DNA from: Corynebacterium amycolatum
Lineage (GTDB): Bacteria; Actinomycetota; Actinomycetes; Mycobacteriales; Mycobacteriaceae
Assembly (NCBI RefSeq): GCF_049243625.1
Contig: NZ_CP046975.1
Strand: one strand, 5' to 3'
DNA: 32,000 nucleotides
In this document: piece after piece, positions 4,608 through 31,055 of the stretch
How the letters are laid out: every line of letters begins with the position of its first letter
Position numbering within the stretch: position 1 is the stretch's first letter
Program-made: the position numbers and the translations under genes
The notes under the pieces: generated by a model
What the model was told of the DNA's origin: nothing
Database searches by the model: none
The model's input: the letters and a program-made list of their open reading frames with translations, nothing else

Positions 4608-5279
4608 ATGACTATGCCTTCGCCCACGTCTAACCCAGGTGACAAGACGCGCAAACAGCTCATCGCCATATTGGTGTTGTTGGTCCTAATTGTCCTGGGG
4701 TTGGCGCTGTTCCTTTCCCTCCAGGTCTCCAGGGATCGAAATAGTGGTGCGGGGGTTGCCGAGGGCAGTGTGTCGTCGTCAAGCGAAAGCAATGCCGTGG
4801 CTGCTGATGACAACGGTGCTGGCGGCAGTGTTGGGGACGATGGTGGCCCGAATCCGACGTCGGGGCAGCAGGCCTCGGGGTCTGGGTCTGATTCGGGGTC
4901 TCATTCGCGAGCGTCCGGGACTTCGGACTCGGATTCTTCGGCGACAACGTCTGGAGCCAATTCGCTCACGGGAACCGTGAAAGTGTTTCAGACCAGAGCG
5001 GAGGTTCTTGCCTATGAGCAGCGACAGGACCCAAATCCTGGTGCGCAGGATAAAGGCCCCTATGCCATCTTGGTTTTGGATCAACCGACCGAGGTAACGG
5101 CGAAGCTATCTGGGCAAGGCGGGCCGGATACGCGCGAGATTAAGACAGCCGTGATTAATCCCGCTCTGCACAACGATGGTGAGCGCACAACAATTACCTT
5201 CGCCGATGACGAATACTACTGGCCATCTGACCCGGGAGTTCCTTCTGGAATCGTCCTCGAGAATGCGCCGCGGAATTAG
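4608..5279 (+). CDS. membrane-anchored hypothetical protein with Ser/Gly-rich linker
   Basis: N-terminal TM helix (LIAILVLLVLIVLGLALFLSLQV), then a low-complexity S/G/D region and a roughly 100-aa C-terminal domain. Follows the glfT2 stop by 10 nt. Confidence 0.65.
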   Translation: MTMPSPTSNPGDKTRKQLIAILVLLVLIVLGLALFLSLQVSRDRNSGAGVAEGSVSSSSESNAVAADDNGAGGSVGDDGGPNPTSGQQASGSGSDSGSHSRASGTSDSDSSATTSGANSLTGTVKVFQTRAEVLAYEQRQDPNPGAQDKGPYAILVLDQPTEVTAKLSGQGGPDTREIKTAVINPALHNDGERTTITFADDEYYWPSDPGVPSGIVLENAPRN

Positions 5280-5300
5280 CCTGAATTAGCTTCTACGCAG

Positions 5301-5327
5301 TTATCCACAGTCGCCAAATTGTCCACA
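5301..5327 (+). promoter_or_regulatory. pair of perfect DnaA-box 9-mers (TTATCCACA 5301-5309, TTGTCCACA 5319-5327), same orientation
   Basis: Read directly. Both are extended by G (TTRTCCACAG) and start 18 nt apart, in the intergenic region upstream of the AbiEi/DUF559-like gene. Confidence 0.4.
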
Positions 5328-5433
5328 GATAAGGGCAATTCGGCGGCTTTTCTGCTGCCAATTTTCACGGAGTCGGCCATAAATGAAGGCACTAATTCCA
5401 ATGTGTGAATGCCTGTAGCCGACCTCGGGGAGT

Positions 5434-6576
5434 GTGTCCAAACCAATGCCTACCTGGACTTACGATTCCGATGGCCTTATTCAGGCCGCTGCGCAGAAGC
5501 AAATCAAGCATCCTTGTGAATATGTCAGTGCCAAGTCAGAGCTGGATAATCTGCACGGGCACGTCGAAAGCACAAATATTCGAGATAAATCCCTGCTCAG
5601 GCTGGCGTATGGCACCTACATTGATTGCTCTCGCTGGAATGCTTTGTCAGCATTCGAACGTTTTCAACTGCAGATAAAGGCACTGGTCAAACCGGGCTCC
5701 GGGACAGTTATCACAGGCGAAGCAGCCGCTGCGCTGCATGGCATCCCGTTGCTTGTTCGAAATGCCACAATCGCGCTTGCCAATTCCGGCCTGCGCCGAC
5801 CCGGCGGCGGATTGCGCCATGTCGGTGGCAAGATTCTCGAACAAGACATCGTTCGCATTGGTGGGCGCTACGTTACCGATGTGCCGAAAACCGTCATCGA
5901 TATCTGCCGCTCCGCCGAGTCCGAAAACGGGCCAATCATCGTTGACACCGCACTACGGCAGTGGTGTGAGCTCGAAGAATTGCATACGGTCCTCACAAAT
6001 TACCCACGCTCGCCGGGAACCCGTCGTGCCCGTGAGCTACTCGGAACTGCCAGTGAACACAGCGAAACCATCGGTGAGTCAATCACAAAGAAATGCATAA
6101 TCGACTCAGGAATTGCCACGCTTTACGACGAAAAATGCGTGCTCATGCAGCAAGTCGAGTTCTATGACAGTGAAGGATTCATTGGGCGCGTCGATTTCTA
6201 TGTGCCTCATCTGAATTTGATCATTGAGTTCGATGGGCTGACTAAGTATTCCGGTGGTGGGGTAGCGGCTACGGAGACTGTACTTCTGGAGGAGCAAGCT
6301 CGTGAGAAGCGTCTGAGGAACCTCCACTTAGATGTACTCCGCTTCCAATGGTCACAGGTCATTAATGGGGACTGCGTGGAGGTCTTGCGACAGTTCGCTA
6401 TTCGGCAGAGGCAGCGCATTCAGGCAGGTGGGTTGGTATTTTCGTCCGAAGTTGGGCGTTTTCGTCAAGCCACTGTCCCGTATAAAGATCGGCAGCTCCG
6501 TGAGTCCAGAATCCAGCAGCGTAAGCAGCGTTTGCAGCTTCTGGAAAATGCACCGACCTCTCGCGACTCCAGCTAG
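5434..6576 (+). CDS. AbiEi_4-like N-terminal domain / DUF559 (Vsr-like endonuclease fold) C-terminal domain protein, orphan
   Basis: N-terminal part LLRLAYGTYI...TGEAAAALHGIPLL, and C-terminal part RVDFYVPHLNLIIEFDGLTKY...EEQAREKRLRNLHLDVLRFQWSQV, typical of the actinobacterial AbiEi/DUF559 architecture. G+C is visibly lower than in neighbouring genes. Start is GTG 5434 or ATG 5446. Confidence 0.7.
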   Translation: MSKPMPTWTYDSDGLIQAAAQKQIKHPCEYVSAKSELDNLHGHVESTNIRDKSLLRLAYGTYIDCSRWNALSAFERFQLQIKALVKPGSGTVITGEAAAALHGIPLLVRNATIALANSGLRRPGGGLRHVGGKILEQDIVRIGGRYVTDVPKTVIDICRSAESENGPIIVDTALRQWCELEELHTVLTNYPRSPGTRRARELLGTASEHSETIGESITKKCIIDSGIATLYDEKCVLMQQVEFYDSEGFIGRVDFYVPHLNLIIEFDGLTKYSGGGVAATETVLLEEQAREKRLRNLHLDVLRFQWSQVINGDCVEVLRQFAIRQRQRIQAGGLVFSSEVGRFRQATVPYKDRQLRESRIQQRKQRLQLLENAPTSRDSS

Positions 6577-6587
6577 GTTCAGTTGCT

Positions 6588-6870
6588 GACCTGTCGCAAT
6601 TGTGCTGACCGGACTTGGAACGATTTCGAGCGGGCTGGCTCGGATTTCCAGCGACTTATAGCCAGTTTCACTTCACTCATCGACGGTTTTCAAGACTCAT
6701 CGACGCTTTTTGGCCGTCGTGCTCACTTATGGCCAACTTCCCGCCACTTGTCGATGACATTTCAGGACTTATGGCCACGCTGTTGTCCTGGCCCGCGCAC
6801 TTATCGTAGGACTATTCACTTATGCGCAGGCTGTAGCGCATCGATGAGTGAATACCTCATCGATATGTCA
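6588..6870 (+). repeat. phased CACTTRT-unit repeat element, copy A (longest, at least 8 clear units)
   Basis: Units start at 6653, 6674, 6694, 6724, 6745, 6766, 6798 and 6817 (spacing 21, 20, 30, 21, 21, 32, 19), with degenerate units back to 6588. Terminal 9-bp hairpin ATCGATGAG-TGAATAC-CTCATCGAT at 6840-6864. Confidence 0.8.
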
Positions 6871-6979
6871 GTGGAGTAGAAGGGAACCAGGGGTTAGGTA
6901 ACGCTTTTGCGAGCTGAGCACTCGAAATGCGGACTAGATGACCCGGGCGAGGTCAAATATGCAGGCCAGCGCAACCTCG

Positions 6980-7069
6980 GCCCCACCAGCCCCAGCGCCG
7001 CAACGCCAGCCAGCCCCCCAGCCAGCCCCCCAGCAAGCAGCCCCAGCGCCCTCCCCAGCGCCCCAGCCC
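6980..7069 (+). repeat. C-rich low-complexity tract (G-rich on the glfT1 coding strand), includes tandem AGCCAGCCCCCC x2
   Basis: Read directly: 12-mers at 7008-7019 and 7020-7031, with multiple C3-C6 runs. Lies immediately 3' of the glfT1 stop (7073-7075) on the minus strand. Confidence 0.75.
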
Positions 7070-7072
7070 GAA

Positions 7073-8179
7073 CTACTTCGACTTCGGATCGAAGCGCTCG
7101 AAGTTCTCTGCGCGCCCCTGCTTCAAAAGCTTGAACCAGCGGTAGAAGCCGCGGACATCGCGACGCTGGACCAGGAAGAACCAGCCGAAGCGCAGGAACT
7201 CCTGTGGCATGAGCTTGCGCATGCCGGGCTGGCTCATCAGGTAGCCGCGGTTGCGGTAGGTGAAGTAGCGCTTGAAGTCATTGGTCGGGTACTGCGTGTG
7301 CATCTTGCCGCCGAGAATGGGCACAAATTCACCCGAGCCGGAGGGGTGCAGGTAGGCCGTCGTCAAGCATGTGCCGAACCGGAGGCCGGAGCGGACCAGG
7401 CGGCGGTGGAATTCGACCTCGTCGCCGCGGATGAATAGGCGGTAGTCGGGAACGCCGAGCTGTTCCAGCGAGCGGGCGCTAAACAGCGCGCCGTTGAACA
7501 GGGATGCGATGCCGGGCAGGAGGTCGTGGTTGCCGTCGATGGTCTCGAGGTCGCTAGGCAGTTCGAGCCCGGTCGCAGCCTTCTGATCTGCGAAGTTGGT
7601 GAACCACTTCGTGCCCTCGGAGTCGCGTACTTCCGGGAGTTTGGGGTTGATGCCGCTTTCGAAAAGCTCTTCGCGATGACGGCGCCACACCAGCCCGCGG
7701 CGCAGGGGGAATGCCAGCTTGTTCGGGGCCTTAATGTCGCAGACCACCGGCGAGACAGCGTCGAGCTGGTGACGTCGCGCGCAGCTGTGCAGCGCCTTCA
7801 GCACGTAGGAGTCCTCCGGGCGCCCGTCATCATCGGCGCACCAAATCCACTCCGCGCCCAGCGACAGCGCAGTCAGCATGCCCAGTGCGAAACCACCAGC
7901 GCCGCCCAGGTTCGTCTTGGAGCCGAGGTAGTGAATTTCCGGCGCCGATCCGCTTTCCGACGACTGCTGCGCCGCCACCTGCTCAGCGAGCTCCTTGACC
8001 TTCGGGTCGTTGCCGTTGTCGACGATGATGAGCCATTTCGGCATGTGGGTCTGGCTGGCAACGATGGGAAGCGATTGACGCAGGTCCTCGATGCGGTTGT
8101 GAGTCACCACGATTGCGGCCGTTGCTGCCTCATCGTGCTTTGGGTGGTCAGCCGAGTTTTCGCTCACTTCGTTCTCCAT
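7073..8179 (-). CDS. glfT1: galactofuranosyltransferase GlfT1 (GT2 family, Rv3782-like)
   Basis: 368 aa with GT2 signature (IVVTHNR, IIVDNG, NLGGAGGFALG, WCADDDGRPE). Last gene of a wzm-wzt-glfT1 minus-strand series, as in the Rv3781-3783 cluster. Confidence 0.85.
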   Translation of the reverse strand: MENEVSENSADHPKHDEAATAAIVVTHNRIEDLRQSLPIVASQTHMPKWLIIVDNGNDPKVKELAEQVAAQQSSESGSAPEIHYLGSKTNLGGAGGFALGMLTALSLGAEWIWCADDDGRPEDSYVLKALHSCARRHQLDAVSPVVCDIKAPNKLAFPLRRGLVWRRHREELFESGINPKLPEVRDSEGTKWFTNFADQKAATGLELPSDLETIDGNHDLLPGIASLFNGALFSARSLEQLGVPDYRLFIRGDEVEFHRRLVRSGLRFGTCLTTAYLHPSGSGEFVPILGGKMHTQYPTNDFKRYFTYRNRGYLMSQPGMRKLMPQEFLRFGWFFLVQRRDVRGFYRWFKLLKQGRAENFERFDPKSK

Positions 8180-16668: not shown

Positions 16669-16744
16669 GCGCCCGTAGCTCAACGGATAGAGCATCTGAC
16701 TACGGATCAGAAGGTTAGGGGTTCGAATCCCTTCGGGCGCACCA
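16669..16744 (+). tRNA. tRNA-Arg (anticodon ACG), copy 1, CCA encoded
   Basis: Acceptor GCGCCCG/CGGGCGC, anticodon stem TCTGA/TCAGA with loop CTACGGA, T-loop TTCGAAT. Lies 3 nt after tRNA-Ser(GCU). Confidence 0.92.
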
Positions 16745-16748
16745 CGTA

Positions 16749-16785
16749 GACCCGCACCTTGTAGGTGCGGGTCTTTTTGTTTTTA
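16749..16785 (+). terminator. intrinsic terminator after tRNA-Arg copy 1
   Basis: GACCCGCACC-TTGTA-GGTGCGGGTC followed by TTTTTGTTTTT. Confidence 0.75.
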
Positions 16786-16841
16786 TTACCTGGCAGTGCA
16801 GCGCGAGCCGAGGCATTGCGGGGCGGGGCAGCGCGATCCTT

Positions 16842-17005
16842 CACTTGTGGCCAGGGTTCGGTCACTTATCGATGGTTTCTCGTGACCTGTCGATGGTTTT
16901 GCGCCACTTATGCGCGCGCTGTGGGTGCTACGTGTGCACTTGTCGATGCGCTGTTCACTTGTGGCCAGGCTATAGCGAATCGATGGGTGAACTATGCATC
17001 GATAA
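16842..17005 (+). repeat. phased CACTTRT-unit repeat element, copy B (6 units)
   Basis: Units start at 16842, 16863, 16884, 16905, 16937 and 16956 (spacing 21, 21, 21, 32, 19). Terminal TTCACTTGTGGCCAGGCTATAGC, then ATCGATG...CATCGAT (16979-17003). Confidence 0.85.
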
Positions 17006-17030
17006 GACAACGAACCAGCTCCCTTGCTTC

Positions 17031-17080
17031 AGCAACGCGCAGCAACAGGTAGCAACGCGCAGCAACAGGTAGCAACGCGG
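17031..17080 (+). repeat. tandem repeat, 20-nt unit (AGCAACGCGC AGCAACAGGT) x2.5, 10-nt AGCAAC sub-period
   Basis: Read directly: agcaacgcgc agcaacaggt agcaacgcgc agcaacaggt agcaacgcgg. Confidence 0.85.
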
Positions 17081-17302
17081 ACCTGCCGCCCGACTCACCA
17101 CCTCCCTGAGCCGCCACGGCCGTACCTCCAACACCCCCGCGCAGCCTTTGCCTGGCCGAATCCGATTAGCCTGGCCTTGTACTTGGTCAATCGGGGCTTC
17201 CGCCCCGCGCCGCCTCGCACACCGGGGGACATTTTCCTATCCTGAACAGTTGCAATAGACTTAGACCCCGGTTGCCCTCCCCGTATTTCGATAGGAGCCT
17301 TG

Positions 17303-20300
17303 ATGGACGCCCGTCTAGCCGTTCGCCGTAAGCCCGAGTTCCGCAATGAGGAAGCTACGCTGCTGTCCTCGATCGGCCAGGACGGTGAGGTGGCAATCTA
17401 CTATCTCTACGATGCTTTCGATGCGACGGAGGAGGACCTCGTCGCGCTGCGTGAGTCGGTAGTTGCTGATTCGCGTGTCGACGAGCTGGTCGAGCTCCCG
17501 GCCCCCGCCGAGCTGGGGAACTACCTTGCTGTCGAGCCTCTTCCTGGCCAGTACGACCAGCGTGCCGATGCCGCCGAGCAGGCCCTGCGTCTACTCCGCC
17601 CGGAAACCCGCGCGCAGATCACCTCGGCAACGCTGTATGTTTTCGACTCTCCGGTGAATGACGCCGTACGCTCCTTCCTCATTAACCCGGTCGAGTCGGG
17701 GGAGAAGAACCTGAGCGTCCTGCGCCGTCCGAGCATGGGCGAGATTGAGCCGCTGAAGGAGTACCCGGGCTTCACAGAGCTGGATGACGAAGGCCTGGCC
17801 GAGCTGCTCGCAGCCGACGGCATGGCCATGTCGCTGGCCGATCTGAAGACCATCCAGGACTACTTCCGCTCCGAGGGCCGCACTCCGACCGAGGTGGAGC
17901 TGTCCGCACTGGATACCTACTGGTCAGACCACTGCCGCCACACCACCTTCAACACCGAGCTGACCTCCATCGAGAACAACGAGCCGCGCTTTGCCGCGCA
18001 GTTGGATCGCGCGCTGCGTCGCTACGACGAGCTGCGTGAACTCAACGGCCGCACTCACAAGCCACGCACCCTGATGGATATGGGCACCATCATGGGCCGC
18101 GAACTGCGTCGCACGGGCGTTATGGATGACCAGGAAGTTTCCGAGGAAATCAACGCCTGCTCCGTCTATGTCGACGTCGAGGGCGATGACCGCAAGTGGC
18201 TCCTCATGTTCAAGAACGAGACCCACAACCACCCGACCGAGATCGAGCCGTTCGGTGGTGCCTCCACCTGTCTCGGCGGCGCGATCCGTGACCCGCTGTC
18301 AGGCCGTTCCTGGGTCTACCAGGCCATGCGTCTGTCCGGCGCAGGTGACATCAACACCCCGCGCGAGCAGACCCTCGAGGGCAAGCTGCCACAGCGCGAT
18401 ATTTCCTCTCGTGCCGCAGCCGGCTACTCCTCTTACGGCAACCAGATCGGTCTGGCCACCACTGGTGTGCGCGAGCTGGTCCACCCGGGATACGTCGCTA
18501 AGCGAATGGAACTCGGTGCCGTCGTCGCCGCTGCCCCGGCAGACAACGTCAAGCGCCTTGAGCCTGCGCCGGGCGATGTGGTGATCATGCTCGGTGGCCG
18601 CACCGGCCGTGACGGCGTCGGCGGTGCGACCGGCTCGTCGAAGGCCCACGATGAGGACTCGCTGGGCCGCTCCGGCGCCGAGGTGCAGAAGGGTAACCCG
18701 GTCAACGAGCGCAAGATTCAGCGCCTGTTCCGCCGCGAGGATGTCGCTACCAAGATTGTCCGCTGTAATGACTTCGGCGCTGGTGGCGTGTCCGTTGCGG
18801 TCGGTGAGCTGGCTGACTCCATTGACATTCACCTCGAGCGCGTGCCACTGAAGTACGCCGGTCTGAATGCTCGCGAGATTGCAATTTCCGAGTCCCAGGA
18901 GCGCATGGCGCTGGTCGTGCGCCCGGAGGACGCCGACTTCATCATCGCCGCCGCTGCCGAAGAGAACATCGAGGCAGTCGCGCTGGCAGATATCACCGAC
19001 ACCGGTCGGCTGCGCATGTTCATGGGCGACGAGGTTGTCTTCGACCTCTCCCGTGAGTTCATCGACACCAACGGCGCTGACCGTGCCCAGAACGTCGAGA
19101 TGGTTGCTGCGGAGGGCGGCGTCGTAAAGCAGGCACCGGCGAGCGTGCTGGAGTCGCTGCGTGCGGCGACGGCGGGCTCCCAGGAGGGCATGATCGAGCA
19201 GTTCGACTCGACCGTCGGCCGCTCCACCGTGCTCATGCCATACGGTGGTGCGACGCAGAAAACCGACGAGCAGGCGTCGATCCAGACGCTGCCGGTCGAT
19301 GGCGGCACGAGCACCGCGTCCGTCATGACTTGGGGTTACTCGCCATCGCTTGCCGACGAGTCCCCGTACCTCATGGGCTCCTACTCCGTCGTGGAGGCAC
19401 TGGCTAAGCTCGCAGCGGCCGGTGGCGATCCGCGCGGTGCCTGGCTGAGTGTGCAGGAGTACTTCCAGCGCCTGGACCAGGATCCGCAGCGCTGGGGCGA
19501 AGTTGCGCAGGCTCTGCTCGGTCTGCTCGAGGCTCAGGATGGCTTCCAGGTTGCGGCCATTGGCGGTAAGGACTCCATGTCCGGCACCTACGGCGAGGAC
19601 CTGCACGTGCCGGCGACACTGGTGACCTTCGCAGTTGCCGCGATGGACGAGACCGACGCCATATCCGCTGCAATCCCGGCCGGTAACTTCGACCTCTACC
19701 TGTTTGCGCACAAGCCGCTCGAGTCCGGGGAACCGAACTACGAGCAGCTCAACGAACTATTTGCCGCTGTGCGTGAGCTGCGTCCGGCTGCGGCCTCGGC
19801 TGTTACCAACGCGGATCTGGCCGCGACTCTGGTCAACATGGCTGTGGGCAATGGCGTGGGCCTTGAGGTATCGCTGACGGAGGCTCCGCTGGGTTCCATC
19901 GTTGTGGCTGTTCCGGCTGGTCAGGCTGTTGAGGGTGCTGGTGCGGGGGCTGGTGCGGGGGCCGTGAAGATCGGTGCCACCGACGAGTCGGGCACGCTGC
20001 GCTTCGGTGCGGAGTCCTTCACTGTTTCGGAGGCCCTGGAGGCGATGGAGTCCGGTTACCGCGAGGTCTTCCCGCTCAATGAGTACGAGGGCGAGCCCCT
20101 GCCGGAGTTCGCCAACCAGGTCAACGAGACCGAGACCGACCTGCAGAGCCCGGGCAAGAAGGATGTCCACGTACTGCTGCCGGTCTTCCCGGGTACCAAC
20201 TCCGAATACGACATGGCCGAGGCATTCGTCGCAGCTGGCGCTACCTACGAGTTCCACGTGATCCGCAACCTGACCCCGGCAATGCTGGCGGAGGACACGA

Positions 20301-20986
20301 AGGCGTTCATCGAGAAGCTCAAGGACGCTGACATCCTGGCGTTCTCCGGTGGCTTCTCCCTGGGTGATGAGCCGGACGGATCGGCTAAGTTCATCGCCGC
20401 GTTCCTGCGTTCCGACGATGTCGCAGCCGCCGTCAAGGAGTTCGTGGCCGGAAACGGTCTCGTGCTCGGTATTTGTAACGGTTTCCAGGCGCTGGTCAAG
20501 TCCGGTTTCCTGCCGTATGGTGACCCGGCGCAGCTCCGCGAGGACTCGCCGACCCTGGCCCACAATCGCCAGCTGCGCCACGTTTCCCGCATCGCCACCA
20601 CCCGCGTGGCAACCGTGAATTCCCCGTGGCTGCGCGGTTTCGAGCCGGGCCAGACCCACCTCATGCCGGTTTCTCACGGTGAGGGCCGTTTCGTGGTTTC
20701 CGAGGACGAGGCTCGCCGACTGTTTGAGGCCGGTCAGGTCGCTTTCCAGTACGTCGATACTGGTGGCGATGCCGACGGTGGTGCCGAGGGCGTGCCGACG
20801 ATGGCAGCGCCAGCCAACCCGAACGGTTCCTCCTACGCCATTGAGGGCATTGTCAGTGCCGACGGCAGGATCCTGGGCAAGATGGGCCACCCGGAGCGTT
20901 TCCGCGAGGGCCTGATGCGCAACATTCCGGGCATTGGTGAGCAGGACATCTTCGGCAACGCTGTCCGCTGGGTCCGCGGCGAGTAG
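17303..20986 (+). CDS. purL: phosphoribosylformylglycinamidine (FGAM) synthase, single-chain large form
   Basis: About 1227 aa. Motifs DHCRHTTFNT and THNHPTEIEPFGGASTCLGGAIRD in the synthetase part. C-terminal glutaminase domain with GICNGFQAL (Cys nucleophile) and HPERF. AGGAG lies 5 nt upstream of ATG 17303 (the track ORF starts at TTG 17300). Contains a short GAGAGAGAGA insert. Confidence 0.92.
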   Translation: MDARLAVRRKPEFRNEEATLLSSIGQDGEVAIYYLYDAFDATEEDLVALRESVVADSRVDELVELPAPAELGNYLAVEPLPGQYDQRADAAEQALRLLRPETRAQITSATLYVFDSPVNDAVRSFLINPVESGEKNLSVLRRPSMGEIEPLKEYPGFTELDDEGLAELLAADGMAMSLADLKTIQDYFRSEGRTPTEVELSALDTYWSDHCRHTTFNTELTSIENNEPRFAAQLDRALRRYDELRELNGRTHKPRTLMDMGTIMGRELRRTGVMDDQEVSEEINACSVYVDVEGDDRKWLLMFKNETHNHPTEIEPFGGASTCLGGAIRDPLSGRSWVYQAMRLSGAGDINTPREQTLEGKLPQRDISSRAAAGYSSYGNQIGLATTGVRELVHPGYVAKRMELGAVVAAAPADNVKRLEPAPGDVVIMLGGRTGRDGVGGATGSSKAHDEDSLGRSGAEVQKGNPVNERKIQRLFRREDVATKIVRCNDFGAGGVSVAVGELADSIDIHLERVPLKYAGLNAREIAISESQERMALVVRPEDADFIIAAAAEENIEAVALADITDTGRLRMFMGDEVVFDLSREFIDTNGADRAQNVEMVAAEGGVVKQAPASVLESLRAATAGSQEGMIEQFDSTVGRSTVLMPYGGATQKTDEQASIQTLPVDGGTSTASVMTWGYSPSLADESPYLMGSYSVVEALAKLAAAGGDPRGAWLSVQEYFQRLDQDPQRWGEVAQALLGLLEAQDGFQVAAIGGKDSMSGTYGEDLHVPATLVTFAVAAMDETDAISAAIPAGNFDLYLFAHKPLESGEPNYEQLNELFAAVRELRPAAASAVTNADLAATLVNMAVGNGVGLEVSLTEAPLGSIVVAVPAGQAVEGAGAGAGAGAVKIGATDESGTLRFGAESFTVSEALEAMESGYREVFPLNEYEGEPLPEFANQVNETETDLQSPGKKDVHVLLPVFPGTNSEYDMAEAFVAAGATYEFHVIRNLTPAMLAEDTKAFIEKLKDADILAFSGGFSLGDEPDGSAKFIAAFLRSDDVAAAVKEFVAGNGLVLGICNGFQALVKSGFLPYGDPAQLREDSPTLAHNRQLRHVSRIATTRVATVNSPWLRGFEPGQTHLMPVSHGEGRFVVSEDEARRLFEAGQVAFQYVDTGGDADGGAEGVPTMAAPANPNGSSYAIEGIVSADGRILGKMGHPERFREGLMRNIPGIGEQDIFGNAVRWVRGE

Positions 20987-21210: not shown

Positions 21211-21283
21211 GCGCCCGTAGCTCAACGGATAGAGCATCTGACTACGGATCAGAAGGTTAGGGGTTCGAATCCCTTCGGGCGCA
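21211..21283 (+). tRNA. tRNA-Arg (anticodon ACG), copy 2, no encoded CCA
   Basis: 73/73 nt identical to 16669-16741. Followed by CAA instead of CCA. Confidence 0.92.
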
Positions 21284-21290
21284 CAAAGCA

Positions 21291-21322
21291 GACCCGCACC
21301 GATAAAGTGCGGGTCTTTTTGT
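21291..21322 (+). terminator. intrinsic terminator after tRNA-Arg copy 2
   Basis: GACCCGCAC-CGATAAA-GTGCGGGTC followed by TTTTTGT. The stem sequence matches the copy 1 terminator, with a different loop. Confidence 0.75.
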
Positions 21323-21328
21323 CTGCCC

Positions 21329-21449
21329 GACTTGTCGATGGTTTTCGGGCACTTATGCGCGCGGTATTGGCTCTGCCTGCGCTCATGTCGATGAGCTATT
21401 CACTTGTGGCCAGGCTATAGCTCATCGATATGTGAATATCTCATCGACA
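21329..21449 (+). repeat. phased CACTTRT-unit repeat element, copy C (minimal, 4 units)
   Basis: Units start at 21329, 21350, 21382 and 21401 (spacing 21, 32, 19). TTCACTTGTGGCCAGGCTATAGC, then ATCGAT (21424) and ATCGAC (21443) 19 nt apart. Confidence 0.85.
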
Positions 21450-21482
21450 GGTGAGGGGCGGAATTGACAGGTGAGGGGCGGA
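21446..21482 (+). repeat. tandem direct repeat GACAGGTGAGGGGCGGA x2 (20-nt period)
   Basis: Read directly at 21446-21462 and 21466-21482. Confidence 0.85.
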
Positions 21483-28007: not shown

Positions 28008-31000
28008 ATGGCAAAGGCCTTGTTCAAACTCGGCAGGTTCTCCTACCTGCATAAATGGACTGTGATCATCGCGTGGTTCCTGATTTTGGCAGGGCTGGGC
28101 GGTGCAGTTGCCGCATTCCAGAAGGGGTTCATCGACCAGTTCTCGATCCCCGGCATGCCGTCGGCAACGGCTTCGCACGTGATTGAGGAAAAGTTCCCCG
28201 ATGTTCCGAACCCAATTCGAGAGCAGCGTATTTATGTCGCCTTCGAGGCTCCTGAGGGGCAAAGGCTCGATGACCCACAGAATAAAGAGGCTGTTGACCG
28301 GGTCATTAACGGCATCCGCGACAATGTCGGCCAAATCGCCGATGATTTGCAACTTCACAACCCGGTAGACCTTAATCCGAAGATGCAGGCGATGGTCAAG
28401 GAACAGGGCATGGCCGCTGGCCTGCCCAAGGATGTTGCCGAGGCCGACGCCAATGCCTTGCGTACCGTGTCCGATGACGGCCGCTACGGTATTTCCACCT
28501 TTGTTTTCGATGCCAAGATGCCACAGGATATCGAGCCAGAGAATATGCAGGCGCTTCTCGACGCCATGCAGGCCGGTCGTGACGCAGGCATCAAGGTCGA
28601 GGCCTCTGGCCCAGGCATGCAGCCCGCGATTGAGGTAGCTCCGATCTCAGAGATTGTCGGTGTGACCGTGGCGTTTATCGTGCTGGTTGTCACCTTCGGC
28701 TCTCTGGTGGCCTCGTTCCTGCCTATTGTGACGGCGGTAGTGGGCATCATCATCGGTGTCTTTGGCGTGACGCTGATGACCGCATTCACTGACGTCAACT
28801 CGATTACCCCGGTGCTGGCCGTGATGTTCGGTCTGGCCGTCGGTATTGACTACGCACTGTTCATCCTCTCTCGCTACAGGGCAGAAAGAGCCCGAGGGAT
28901 GACCAACGAAGATGCCATCGGCATGGCGACCGGTACGGCTGGCTCCGCTGTGGTTTTCGCAGGCCTCACCGTGATTGTCGCGCTGGCAGCGCTGACGGTT
29001 GCCAAGGTGCCGTTCATGTCCCTGATGGGTATTTCGGCGGCAATCACAGTGGCCTTCACAGTGCTGGTCTCCCTGACCCTGCTGCCGGCAGTTATGTCTC
29101 TGCTGGGGGATAAGGTCTTCGCTGGTCGTGTGCCCGGTGTTGCTGGCAACCCCTCGCGCAATCCGCGCAAGGGGCGCCGCTCTTCCTTCTTCGGTGAGAT
29201 GACGATGGGGCGCCGTTGGGTCACCTTCGTGCACAAGGCTCCAGGGCTGTTCCTGGTCGGCTGCATCGTCTTGCTGTTGGCGTTGGCCTACCCGGCCATG
29301 CACTTGAAGCTGGCGCTGCCGTCGGACTCTACTGCAGCTAAGGACAGCACGAACCGCAAGGCCATCACCATGATTGAAGAGGGCTTCGGCGCGGGACGTA
29401 ACTCGCAGCTCATCATTATTGCCAAGTCGGACGATGTGAAGCCCGATGCGCCGGTGCTCAAACCGCTTATCGAGTCCCTGAAGCAGACCAACCCGGAACT
29501 CTCTGACATCGAGGCCGCCCGCAAGGCTTCCTATAGTTACGCTGTCGACCAGTTCAAATCCAACGTCGGTGTCGAGCACATCCAGATGATTGGCATGAAT
29601 CATGACGGCACTGCGGTCAAGATGATCATGACCCCGAAGTCGGGTCCGCTCGATCCTGCGACCAAGCAGCTGATGAACGCGGTGCGCGACCAGCAGAAGC
29701 AGATTGAGCAAACCACCGGCCTATTCACCGGTGTCACTGGTCTGGTGCCTATTGAAATTGACATCACTGACCGACTCCAGGGCGCAATGCCGCTCTACTT
29801 GGGCGTTGTCGTGGGTCTGGCAGTAATTCTGCTGCTGATGATTTTCCGTTCCCTGATGGTGCCAGTGACTGCCGGTGTGGGCTTCTTGCTCTCTGTCGCA
29901 GCCGCATTCGGTGTCACAGTGGCATTTTTCCAGGATGGCCTCTGGGGTGTGATTAGCACTCCGGGTCCGCTGGTCAGCTTTGTGCCAATCTTCCTCATTG
30001 GTGTGACGTTCGGTTTGGCCATGGACTATCAGGTCTTCCTGGTTTCCCGCATGCGCGAGCATTACACCCACAACAAGGGTGAATCCTCGCCAGAGTCGAA
30101 GTACAACGCGGTCGAAGAATCGGTCGTCGAGGGCTTTACTCTCGGCGCTCGTGTGGTCACGGCCGCTGCGATTATTATGATCTCCGTCTTCGCGGCGTTC
30201 GCCGGGCAGCCCCTGGCGATTATTAAGGTATTCGGTTTCGCGCTGGGTGCCGCAGTGCTTTTCGACGCCTTCGTTATCCGCATGACGTTCATCCCGGCAG
30301 CCATGTTCTTGCTTGGCCGCGCTACGTGGTACATGCCGAAGTGGCTGGACAAGGTGTTGCCTTCTGTGGATGTCGAAGGCTCCGCCCTGGAAGAGGTTTC
30401 CGAGGAGCTGGTGGAGAAGGGCCGCCGGGAGCGTATGGCTCGCGGTGAGTCCCTGTTGCCCGAAAGTGAAGGTGCCGGGCGTGGCTTTGGCGACGCTGAC
30501 GAGGACGAGGACGAAACAGACAGTGCCGATGGTGAAGTCGGTGCTGGTGCAGAGGGGGCAGCCGCTGCAGCTGGTACAGGGGGTACAGCGGGCGGCACTG
30601 CTGTGGCTGTCGCGACCAAGAAGCGTAACCGCTGGATTCCGAAGCGGAAGAAGGCAAAGCTGGAGGAAGTCGAGCAGGCTGACCAGGCTGAGCAGACTGA
30701 ACAGGCCGAACAACCTGAGCGCTCCGAGCAGGCCGAACCGTCCGCCCCGACGGCACCAGCTGAGCCTGAGCAGGCCGAACAGCCGGAGCCGACTGAGCAG
30801 CCGGAGCAGGCAGAGCCGACCGAACAGCTCATGCAGGCAGCGCCAGCTGAACCAACCGACGCCCAGCCGAACCCGGAAAATGCCAAGGATATCGAGGTCC
30901 GTCCGTACTACAGCCCGGCTCGTAAGCGAAAGAAGATTACGGTTGCGGAACTGATGAAGCGCGAAGGACTCGAAGAGGAAGCGCCACGTCGTAGCCGCGC

Positions 31001-31055
31001 CGTGTGGGACCCGGAAAACGCTATTCAGCCCGAGGAAAACGACAGCGCTGAGTAA
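28008..31055 (+). CDS. MMPL family (RND superfamily) transporter, CmpL/MmpL-like, with long low-complexity C-terminal tail
   Basis: 1015 aa. N-terminus MAKALFKLGRFSYLHKWTVIIAWFLIL, two 6-TM bundles with large loops, and conserved GIDYALFILSRYR and GLAMDYQVFLVSRMRE motifs. The tail from about aa 787 is E/Q/A/P-rich. Confidence 0.9.
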   Translation: MAKALFKLGRFSYLHKWTVIIAWFLILAGLGGAVAAFQKGFIDQFSIPGMPSATASHVIEEKFPDVPNPIREQRIYVAFEAPEGQRLDDPQNKEAVDRVINGIRDNVGQIADDLQLHNPVDLNPKMQAMVKEQGMAAGLPKDVAEADANALRTVSDDGRYGISTFVFDAKMPQDIEPENMQALLDAMQAGRDAGIKVEASGPGMQPAIEVAPISEIVGVTVAFIVLVVTFGSLVASFLPIVTAVVGIIIGVFGVTLMTAFTDVNSITPVLAVMFGLAVGIDYALFILSRYRAERARGMTNEDAIGMATGTAGSAVVFAGLTVIVALAALTVAKVPFMSLMGISAAITVAFTVLVSLTLLPAVMSLLGDKVFAGRVPGVAGNPSRNPRKGRRSSFFGEMTMGRRWVTFVHKAPGLFLVGCIVLLLALAYPAMHLKLALPSDSTAAKDSTNRKAITMIEEGFGAGRNSQLIIIAKSDDVKPDAPVLKPLIESLKQTNPELSDIEAARKASYSYAVDQFKSNVGVEHIQMIGMNHDGTAVKMIMTPKSGPLDPATKQLMNAVRDQQKQIEQTTGLFTGVTGLVPIEIDITDRLQGAMPLYLGVVVGLAVILLLMIFRSLMVPVTAGVGFLLSVAAAFGVTVAFFQDGLWGVISTPGPLVSFVPIFLIGVTFGLAMDYQVFLVSRMREHYTHNKGESSPESKYNAVEESVVEGFTLGARVVTAAAIIMISVFAAFAGQPLAIIKVFGFALGAAVLFDAFVIRMTFIPAAMFLLGRATWYMPKWLDKVLPSVDVEGSALEEVSEELVEKGRRERMARGESLLPESEGAGRGFGDADEDEDETDSADGEVGAGAEGAAAAAGTGGTAGGTAVAVATKKRNRWIPKRKKAKLEEVEQADQAEQTEQAEQPERSEQAEPSAPTAPAEPEQAEQPEPTEQPEQAEPTEQLMQAAPAEPTDAQPNPENAKDIEVRPYYSPARKRKKITVAELMKREGLEEEAPRRSRAVWDPENAIQPEENDSAE

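Follow-up and report, generated by a model that had tools for sequence, protein, structure and literature searches.

REP/REPIN-RAYT systems combine short, imperfect, intergenic palindromes with a single-copy, vertically inherited gene that is typically flanked by its cognate palindromes. The sequence of the repeat is specific to each gene lineage, reflecting co-evolution, and solo copies located elsewhere persist at orthologous positions. The gene encodes an HUH/Y1 (IS200/IS605-like) transposase, and the repeats, 20-40-nt hairpins with a GTAG head, are present in tens to hundreds of copies; these features are reportedly those described by Nunvar and co-workers in 2010 and by Bertels and Rainey in 2011. 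Here we analyze an intergenic repeat element found in three copies (A, B and C) in a stretch of 32,000 nucleotides of the Corynebacterium amycolatum contig NZ_CP046975.1 (assembly GCF_049243625.1), which will be referred to as the window. Copy B, which has no associated gene, is the main subject of this work, while copy A adjoins a gene (open reading frame, ORF, 5434-6576) whose product is predicted to be a winged-helix/Vsr-like nuclease. We propose, with a probability of roughly 0.6, that B is a solo copy of the predicted cognate cis-site of this gene.

Other described systems also have features in common with the element. Direct repeats combined with inverted operator repeats are found in plasmid iterons, for example in pSC101- or P1-type origins, and the AbiEi antitoxin of type IV toxin-antitoxin systems binds inverted repeats in its own promoter. 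As for the nuclease, a relevant precedent is I-Bth0305I, a Vsr-like (EDxHD) homing endonuclease (PMC3239194).

Results and discussion

The three copies share a four-unit palindromic core

Copies A, B and C are homologous. A repeat search of the window grouped positions 6745-6863, 16884-17002 and 21329-21447 in one 119-nt family with 67-79% identity, and pairwise blastn comparisons gave 80.8% identity between B and C over 120 nt (E 8e-28), 73.8% between A and C over 130 nt (E 1e-18) and 69.8% between A and B over 129 nt (E 9e-11). The sequence-only reading that preceded this analysis had described three copies on the + strand (A 6588-6870, B 16842-17005, C 21329-21449) made of phased short units, and the repeat family turned out to be genuine. 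The unit head CACTTRT was observed 12 times in the window, a number that was expected to be 4.3 +/- 2.0 and was reached in none of 100 shuffles, and 11 of these 12 occurrences are inside the copies and on the + strand. The relaxed core ACYYRT was clustered only at A, B and C, with 10, 9 and 5 matches, respectively, versus 0.34 expected per 160 nt. The spacings between unit starts that had been reported were reproduced exactly in B (21, 21, 21, 32, 19) and A (21, 20, 30, 21, 21, 32, 19), and in C a spacing of 21 is followed by one of 51, corresponding to 32+19 through the degenerate unit CTCATGT. Pairs of ATCGAT motifs located 19 nt apart were likewise present at 6840/6859, 16979/16998 and 21424/21443. 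As to the extent of the copies, B and C had to be prolonged to the right by additional reverse units (17045-17071 and 21447-21473). The repeat had also been considered not to be a CRISPR, in agreement with the fact that its units share a 7-nt head only, have three types of tail and are separated by intervals of 12-25 nt that are partly repeated. The features discussed throughout the text are compiled in Table 1.

Table 1. Location of the repeat copies and associated features in the window.
Feature	Position	Strand	Description
Copy B	16842..17005	+	Six forward units, starting at 16842, 16863, 16884, 16905, 16937 and 16956
Centre of copy B, GCTATAGC	16969-16976		Followed by two reverse-strand units with the ATCGAT pair, 16977-16991 and 16994-17008
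Core imperfect palindrome of B	16934..17011	no strand	F-1 (19 nt) F - TTCAC-N10-GCTATAGC-N10-GTGAA - R1 (19 nt) R2
20-nt-period tandem repeat right of B	17030..17079	-	ACCTGTTGC units, additional reverse-oriented units
Copy A, gene-proximal	6588..6870	+	Nine forward units, centre GCTGTAGC, two reverse units; core palindrome about 6795-6872
Copy C, solo	21329..21480	+	Forward units at 21329, 21350, 21382 (degenerate) and 21401
Centre of copy C, GCTATAGC			Reverse units reach 21473; core palindrome about 21379-21456
Candidate cognate protein gene	5434..6576	+	380 aa; AbiEi-like winged-helix N-terminal part, Vsr/DUF559-like PD-(D/E)xK nuclease C-terminal domain
DnaA-box-like motif pair	5301..5327	+	TTATCCACA (5301-5309) and TTGTCCACA (5319-5327), upstream of the nuclease gene
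tRNA-Arg(ACG) copy 1 and intrinsic terminator	16669..16774	+	Directly upstream of B; context, outside the element
tRNA-Arg(ACG) copy 2 and terminator hairpin	21211..21318	+	Directly upstream of C; 93% identical to copy 1; context

The two ATCGAT motifs are better interpreted as part of two units on the reverse strand, which in B are CACCCATCGAT and GTCTTATCGATG, so that the 3' part of each copy constitutes an imperfect palindrome of around 75 bp. The last 70 nt or so of every copy also matched the family model on the opposite strand (nhmmer reverse-strand self-matches), and an inverted-repeat search agreed with the palindromic nature of this 3' part. The same layout is found in the core of each copy, with two forward units separated by 19 nt (F-1 and F), the centre, and two reverse units also separated by 19 nt (R1 and R2). 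The centre is an 8-bp palindrome, GCT(A/G)TAGC, and the exact symmetry that can be read from the three copies is TTCAC-N10-GCT(A/G)TAGC-N10-GTGAA. In B, the inverted arms (16939-16958 and 16987-17006) are 80% complementary. The array to the left of the core corresponds to the two-unit arm (42 nt, i.e. 2 x 21) expanded in tandem. This expansion varies among strains, copy A having 6, 9, 10 or 11 units depending on the strain while its 32/19 core is constant; the long run of 21-nt units, previously regarded as a fixed feature of the element, is thus no such thing. The number of copies of the 20-nt tandem repeat located beside B is also different among strains, and strain-variable repeats in the spacer before B include a G-rich stretch (GCGGGGCGGGGCAGCGCG, 16782-16835) between the tRNA-Arg terminator and the element, which is tandemly expanded in strain SK46.

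As regards hairpin formation, which had been raised for the ATCGAT motifs of copies A and B, the folding potential of the window copies as single-stranded DNA, when compared with shuffled sequences, is modest (z = -2.4 for B, -3.5 for C and -2.5 for A). Arguing for a hairpin, in RNA or in DNA, from covariation between the arms was dropped: only two suggestive positions could be identified by eye between B and C, and the arm spacers show little compensatory change. A protein-binding array on one face of the helix is still, we infer, the most plausible physical reading of the element, and the two-unit geometry of 19-21 nt recurs in palindromes of unrelated sequence associated with the same gene family, as described below. 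Resemblances to parS, GlxR, AmtR, MtrA or PhoR boxes were also discarded, the matches being partial and not conserved among the copies (by eye), and so was TTCACT-N11-TATAGC as a promoter, its spacing being wrong upon visual inspection.

Copy A adjoins a predicted nuclease gene whose homologues have palindromes of their own

No obvious binding partner had been noticed in the window by the sequence-only reading, an appreciation that proved to be mistaken. Copy A starts 12 nt past the stop codon of ORF 5434-6576, which would encode a protein combining a winged helix and a Vsr-like nuclease domain, and palindromes of this design, with a sequence specific to each lineage, flank the homologues of the gene. 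The protein alone gave no matches when compared with Pfam, NCBIfam and PDB sequences, and the identity of its domains was derived from distant family members and from a structure model. Distant members match the Pfam families AbiEi_4 (winged helix; PF13338) and DUF559. The AlphaFold model of the protein has a pLDDT of 89, and the best domain match obtained with it in Foldseek was the catalytic domain of I-Bth0305I (3r3p; probability 1.0, TM 0.68), a similarity at the level of fold only. Foldseek also returned Vsr (1vsr, 1cw0) and, for the N-terminal part, Rv2827c (1zel). VSR, DUF559 and 3r3p have been placed in one PD-(D/E)XK group (PMC3424549). The residues that are invariant in the family are D254, E265, D267 and K271.

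The closest relatives of the protein are confined to Corynebacterium, with 58% identity in C. lactis and 52% in a sister species (L020). These values indicate a fast evolution, given that PurL is 91% identical in L020, which is fully syntenic, and the LLM oxidoreductase is 83% identical in C. lactis. In the window, L020 and C. lactis the nuclease gene is found at one and the same locus, no empty gene site having been observed, whereas across other species it lies at differing loci, near tgt, purH, pyrG or holB. In an exhaustive profile search, the number of cluster representatives was 3,200 at E<=1e-30 and rose to 9,900 at E<=1e-10, and no relatives of the protein were found in the viral contigs of IMG/VR. 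The GC content shows a dip to 0.54 over positions 5001-7000, which comprise the nuclease gene and copy A, versus 0.60-0.65 around them; around B it is 0.59-0.63.

In the Corynebacterium lineages fetched, most homologues have an adjoining palindrome with the same architecture and a lineage-specific unit sequence. It is located only downstream of the gene in the window, L020, L064 and L070, while in L066, L069 and L075/76/96 there are direct copies on both sides, with a length of 64-74 nt, a similarity of 80-95% and a distance of 1.44-1.55 kb between them. Palindromes on both sides are also present in a paralogue with 30% identity (L077/79/82), and the downstream regions of L065 and L068 show mainly tandem repeats. 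This second, 30%-identical paralogue is found in C. amycolatum (L079) on the same 214-kb contig as the orthologue (L074), and also in L077, L080 and L082. Its palindrome, near-perfect, 73 nt long and of unrelated sequence (TGACTAGGTTTATGACACTTT...AAAGTGTCATAAACCTAGTCA; L079 2554-2626 and 4001-4073), has a fold z of -12; a run of GCCACAAA repeats precedes the paralogue in place of DnaA-like boxes, and no copy of the palindrome was found when the window was searched for it.

A similar organization was observed beyond this genus. A metagenome scan with the family alignment provided 80 loci, mostly from high-GC Actinobacteria, 57 of them with both flanks available. In 41 of these 57, one sequence of 20-108 nt located upstream of the gene recurred downstream of it, at a distance of 1.02-1.55 kb, while none of 57 mismatched flank pairs, used as control, shared a repeat. 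More than half of the shared repeats (26 of 41) are themselves inverted repeats. As to direct repeats within the palindromes, the distribution of their best spacing has its peak at 19-21 nt, a range that comprises 12 of 20 strong cases versus 16% in shuffles; in the window this spacing is 19 nt. Many of the loci are syntenic orthologues, so that inheritance is largely vertical.

These data bear on the view that the element is a functionless intergenic repeat with a fast neutral turnover, generated by slippage and template-switching in hairpin-prone spacers and placed beside a nuclease gene by coincidence. The VNTR-like (variable-number tandem repeat) number of units in copy A, and in the 20-nt tandem next to B, would be expected in such a case, as would the imperfection of the window palindromes and the fact that B is dispensable in L020 (see below). 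Neutral drift would not readily explain, however, that copies differing at 20-30% of their positions have preserved the 32/19 geometry and the TTCAC-N10-GCTRTAGC-N10-GTGAA symmetry, nor that the same architecture with another sequence appears at orthologous sites and beside homologous genes in many lineages, with the 19-21-nt arm spacing enriched family-wide. We consider this explanation unlikely.

A second characteristic of the family is the presence of motifs similar to DnaA boxes. The sequence T[TC][AG]TCCACA was found 50 times in 33 kb upstream of homologues versus 8 times in 319 kb elsewhere, an enrichment of around 60-fold. The motifs, which are non-coding, follow the upstream palindrome and precede the start codon, and are also present at L064, L068-L070, L075/76/96 and around 40 of the metagenome loci. 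In the window the only two DnaA boxes are those at 5301 and 5319, with none at B or C. The latter observation is relevant for a reading in which an integrated mini-replicon would have the element as its iteron-type replication origin, or partition site, and the adjacent gene as its initiator. Direct repeats phased at 19-21 nt with inverted partial copies, the DnaA-box-like motifs beside the gene both in the window and family-wide, and a winged-helix domain in the protein would all suit a replicon of this kind. On the other hand, the protein resembles AbiEi fused to a Vsr-like nuclease and lacks a Rep initiator fold, the gene is vertically inherited at syntenic sites, plasmid or phage homologues were not found, and B and C are devoid of DnaA boxes. 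Of the hallmarks of iterons, only the phasing of direct repeats (17-22 bp) is seen in the element; a Rep gene beside the repeats and an AT-rich unwinding region are not, B and C having no candidate gene next to them and the GC content around B being 0.59-0.63. An origin or partition site seems to us very improbable, and the true iterons or recombinase (integrase) arm-type sites to which the initial reading had alluded can be regarded as unlikely: neither a Rep nor an integrase gene is nearby, plasmids and phages gave no match, and copy A is away from any tRNA gene.

Distribution of the element in related genomes

For the pattern TTCACTTNTGNNCAGGCTNTAGC, 185,579 species were scanned, each represented by a single genome; the pattern covers the central module only, and diverged copies could escape it. 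Matches were limited to C. amycolatum SK46 and two closely related Corynebacterium, plus one match that is likely due to chance, and each of the three related genomes had 2-4 matches at the same loci A, B and C. The family is low-copy, and is neither a high-copy REP nor a high-copy MITE (miniature inverted-repeat transposable element) family. In IMG/VR there were 0 matches to the central-module pattern and 0 to the L020-type arm; the unit CACTTRTCGATGGTTT had 38 single matches, attributable to chance since none of them fits the hidden Markov model of the element. Copy B gave no match in blastn searches (distant setting) against 50,697 phage and 72,556 plasmid records. With respect to RNA families, Rfam 15 identified only tRNAs in the whole window at the gathering threshold, and at E<=10 only tRNAs and noise between 16500 and 17350, with nothing credible over 16780-17120. 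In the collections searched, the element does not correspond to any Rfam family, phage or plasmid.

In the sister species L020, site B is empty, with the neighbouring tRNA-Arg and purL genes intact. Sites A and C are occupied there by copies (A' and C') whose sequence cannot be aligned with that of the window copies although their design is alike, with forward units CACCTATGGCTC and GACTTATGGC, a centre that is CGTATACG or GTATAC, and reverse units GAGCCATAGGT. In C. lactis a copy follows tRNA-Ser(CGA), with units CACTTGTTGGCG and centre GCGCTATAGCGC, a site at which the window has no copy. The units are thus genome-specific and common to the copies of one genome, be it A, B and C in the window or A' and C' in L020. 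The fact that copies within a genome are far more alike than orthologous copies points to concerted evolution, or to turnover under a genome-specific constraint.

A fourth copy, similar to C, was detected upstream of mraZ in one metagenome-assembled genome (MAG) of a close relative (L013 4774-5181 and 5309-5461). It carries 12 nt of the left flank of C and lies beside an N-terminal fragment of an IS1249-family transposase, which suggests that this duplication may have been mediated by an insertion sequence (IS). It is followed by a 25-nt tandem repeat that contains CACTTCG.

This additional copy, adjoining an IS fragment, could be taken as an indication that the element is a MITE-like non-autonomous transposon, or a pair of transposon ends with several subterminal transposase sites, mobilised by an IS located elsewhere. 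Such a view would also account for the presence of forward units on the left and reverse units on the right, an arrangement of inverted unit arrays that resembles terminal or subterminal inverted repeats, and for the differences in presence and absence between species. It is difficult to reconcile with only 2-4 pattern matches per genome, which in the three close genomes are at the same, orthologous loci instead of being dispersed over non-orthologous sites, and with a wider family that is mostly syntenic. No clean termini or target-site duplications could be recognized when filled and empty sites were compared, matches in plasmids, phages and IMG/VR were lacking, and no IS with ends of this type was present in the collections searched. 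A transposon of this sort is, in our opinion, decidedly unlikely.

Genomic context of the copies

Copy B is located between tRNA-Ser/tRNA-Arg(ACG), with its terminator, and the single-chain purL; copy C, between the second tRNA-Arg(ACG), also followed by a terminator, and the LLM oxidoreductase gene; and copy A, between the convergent genes 5434-6576 (+) and 7073-8179 (-). A decayed nuclease gene (pseudogene) was searched for next to B and C, and none was found. Tracking of tRNA genes by the element, one of the checks initially suggested, was observed for B, C and one C. lactis copy, all of them following tRNAs, and did not extend to A or the fourth MAG copy.

The tRNA-Arg(ACG) gene (window positions 16669-16744 and 21211-21284) is duplicated throughout the C. 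amycolatum/lactis clade (L061, L062, L063, L020), and the cargo between or after its two copies is species-specific, including purL, an ABC peptide transporter, an F420-type oxidoreductase or a lipocalin. The space at the duplicated tRNA-Arg(ACG) is a conserved insertion hot spot. The single-chain (large) purL (17303-20986) is placed between the two tRNA-Arg genes in both the window and L020, while that of C. uterequi (79% identical) is inside a pur gene cluster; the next relatives of purL have a patchy distribution over Corynebacterium and Actinomycetaceae, which suggests relocation or transfer of the gene.

In C. diphtheriae, tRNA-Arg(ACG) duplicates are corynephage attB sites, and the position of B and C directly after the two tRNA-Arg(ACG) genes, along with the species-specific cargo around them, could suggest that the copies are remnants of attachment sites of phages or integrative elements, i.e. 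arrays of integrase or Xis arm-type sites. Yet A and the fourth MAG copy are not at tRNA genes, and the same design flanks a nuclease gene and not an integrase. There is no integrase among the ORFs of the window, and no phage gene, partial tRNA duplicate or duplication of a tRNA 3' end nearby, the only repeated tRNA sequences being the two full tRNA-Arg genes, and neither IMG/VR nor GenBank phages had matches. We hold this possibility to be highly improbable.

The same can be said of a transcribed structured RNA, either a small RNA, a 5' leader or an RNA-stability hairpin. Although the cores can fold as hairpins, and B and C are upstream of purL and the LLM oxidoreductase gene, respectively, a scan for sigma-70-like promoters and terminators over A and B gave none inside the elements, copy A is between convergent genes, and B is absent before purL in L020 even though the purL-proximal region is conserved there. 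The scarcity of compensatory changes in the arm spacers and the lack of Rfam matches even at E<=10 argue in the same direction.

Some other observations were made in the window. To the right of A, positions 6966-7164 contain a simple repeat rich in CCAGCC/CCCCAG that overlaps the 3' end of the glycosyltransferase gene on the opposite strand, with a comparable run of CCAGCC located after the element of C. lactis (L064 5346-5556). A repeat with a period of 9 nt is present at 30676-30852, as seven overlapping 63-nt copies in the 3' end of the MMPL-family ORF 28008-31055, where it probably encodes a low-complexity tail rich in E, Q and P. Finally, the similarity of ORF 1061-2044 to the plasmid pRiA4b ORF-3-like family (PF07929) is weak and falls just short of the curated cut-off (E 1.4e-5).

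Proposed relationship between the nuclease gene and copy B

If B is, as we propose, a solo cis-site of the winged-helix/Vsr-like nuclease, the winged-helix domain would bind the units, each arm being occupied by two protomers located around two helical turns apart and thus facing the same side of the helix. Binding would bring the nuclease domains to the palindrome, the centre of which would be the place of nuclease action. Protein and sites would co-evolve, each lineage thus having a unit sequence of its own, and additional forward units would arise via tandem duplication of the left arm. As for the solo copies, they could originate by duplication of the site into new intergenic places, by gene conversion or, alternatively, by loss of the gene cassette through recombination between flanking copies; duplication or cassette loss might then account for the presence of solo copies, B and C among them, past the tRNA-Arg terminators. 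Our confidence in any particular mechanism of spreading is much lower than in the relationship between gene and site.

Several facts weigh against this interpretation. What ties protein to site is solely adjacency and co-variation, from which we infer binding and cleavage. The palindromes of the window are weak (z -2.4 to -3.5) with respect to those of other lineages (z -5.7 to -12), and the window gene has a downstream copy only, rather than a flanking pair. Unlike REP families, the element has very few copies, with 2-4 pattern matches per genome, and B is dispensable in a sister species where the neighbouring genes are intact. There is little direct evidence of mobility, and the duplication that gave rise to the fourth copy may have been IS-mediated rather than driven by the nuclease. 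In addition, the synteny of many loci of the wider family implies that the proportion of 41 in 57 over-counts independent events.

On a broader scale, we suggest more tentatively that the gene and its palindromes could represent an undescribed class of module, widespread in Actinobacteria, in which a nuclease gene (around 3,200 cluster representatives at E<=1e-30) is bracketed by a co-evolving four-unit palindrome, with a DnaA-box-like motif before it and occasional solo palindromes. It might behave as a long-lived, vertically inherited replicator, selfish or domesticated. A tie to replication control is suggested by the conserved DnaA-box-like motif, and the module might be coupled to DnaA and to replication of the chromosome. 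Should the link between nuclease and palindrome hold, it would point to the likely DNA targets of a very large actinobacterial family that is uncharacterised (AbiEi_4/DUF559-like, with thousands of clusters), thereby opening a first way into its function, and would constitute a partnership between a repeat and a cognate gene in bacterial chromosomes independent of REP/RAYT. From an applied perspective, the arrays of copy A, with 6-11 units, are VNTR typing markers for C. amycolatum, an emerging opportunistic pathogen, and a nuclease whose recognition site is long, modular and quick to re-target could serve as a tool.

Comparison with known systems

The nuclease domain is, according to the structure model, closest in fold to I-Bth0305I (3r3p, TM 0.68), and both would be DNA-targeting nucleases encoded by an apparently selfish, fast-evolving gene. 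Unlike homing endonuclease genes, the one in the window is outside any intron or intein and does not interrupt its presumed target, intact copies of which flank the gene; it is inherited vertically at syntenic sites, and its catalytic motif is E-x-D-G-x-x-K and not EDxHD. As in AbiEi operators, the presumed sites are repeated and inverted, and the N-terminal part of the protein resembles AbiEi/Rv2827c (PF13338 in distant members; 1zel). In this case, however, there is no AbiEii toxin gene as partner, the domain is fused to a nuclease, and the sites are downstream or on both sides of the gene and at distant loci, instead of only in the promoter. Plasmid iterons share with the element direct repeats of around 20 nt phased at approximately two helical turns, partial inverted copies and DnaA boxes, these being only beside the gene of copy A; they differ from it in having a Rep initiator and a plasmid or phage context, while here solo copies are free of DnaA boxes and the number of units varies freely by strain.

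By analogy, the element would work most like REP/REPIN-RAYT systems. In both, palindromes flank a single-copy gene (41 of 57 loci in the wider family versus 0 of 57 in the control, the window gene having the downstream copy only), repeats are lineage-specific and solo copies exist. The differences are nonetheless considerable, since an AbiEi_4-like plus DUF559/Vsr-like PD-(D/E)xK nuclease is unrelated to the HUH/Y1 transposase, as seen in the Pfam and Foldseek comparisons, pattern matches here are 2-4 per genome, sites are palindromes of four units (2+2) whose 21-nt arrays can expand, and a DnaA-box-like motif accompanies the gene. The element cannot be included among REP/REPIN-RAYT systems because its enzyme is not an HUH transposase, its copy number is very low and its site is a four-unit palindrome. 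In the literature searched, consisting of papers available without subscription, there was no description of the element or of a link between DUF559/AbiEi_4 genes and flanking palindromes or DnaA boxes.

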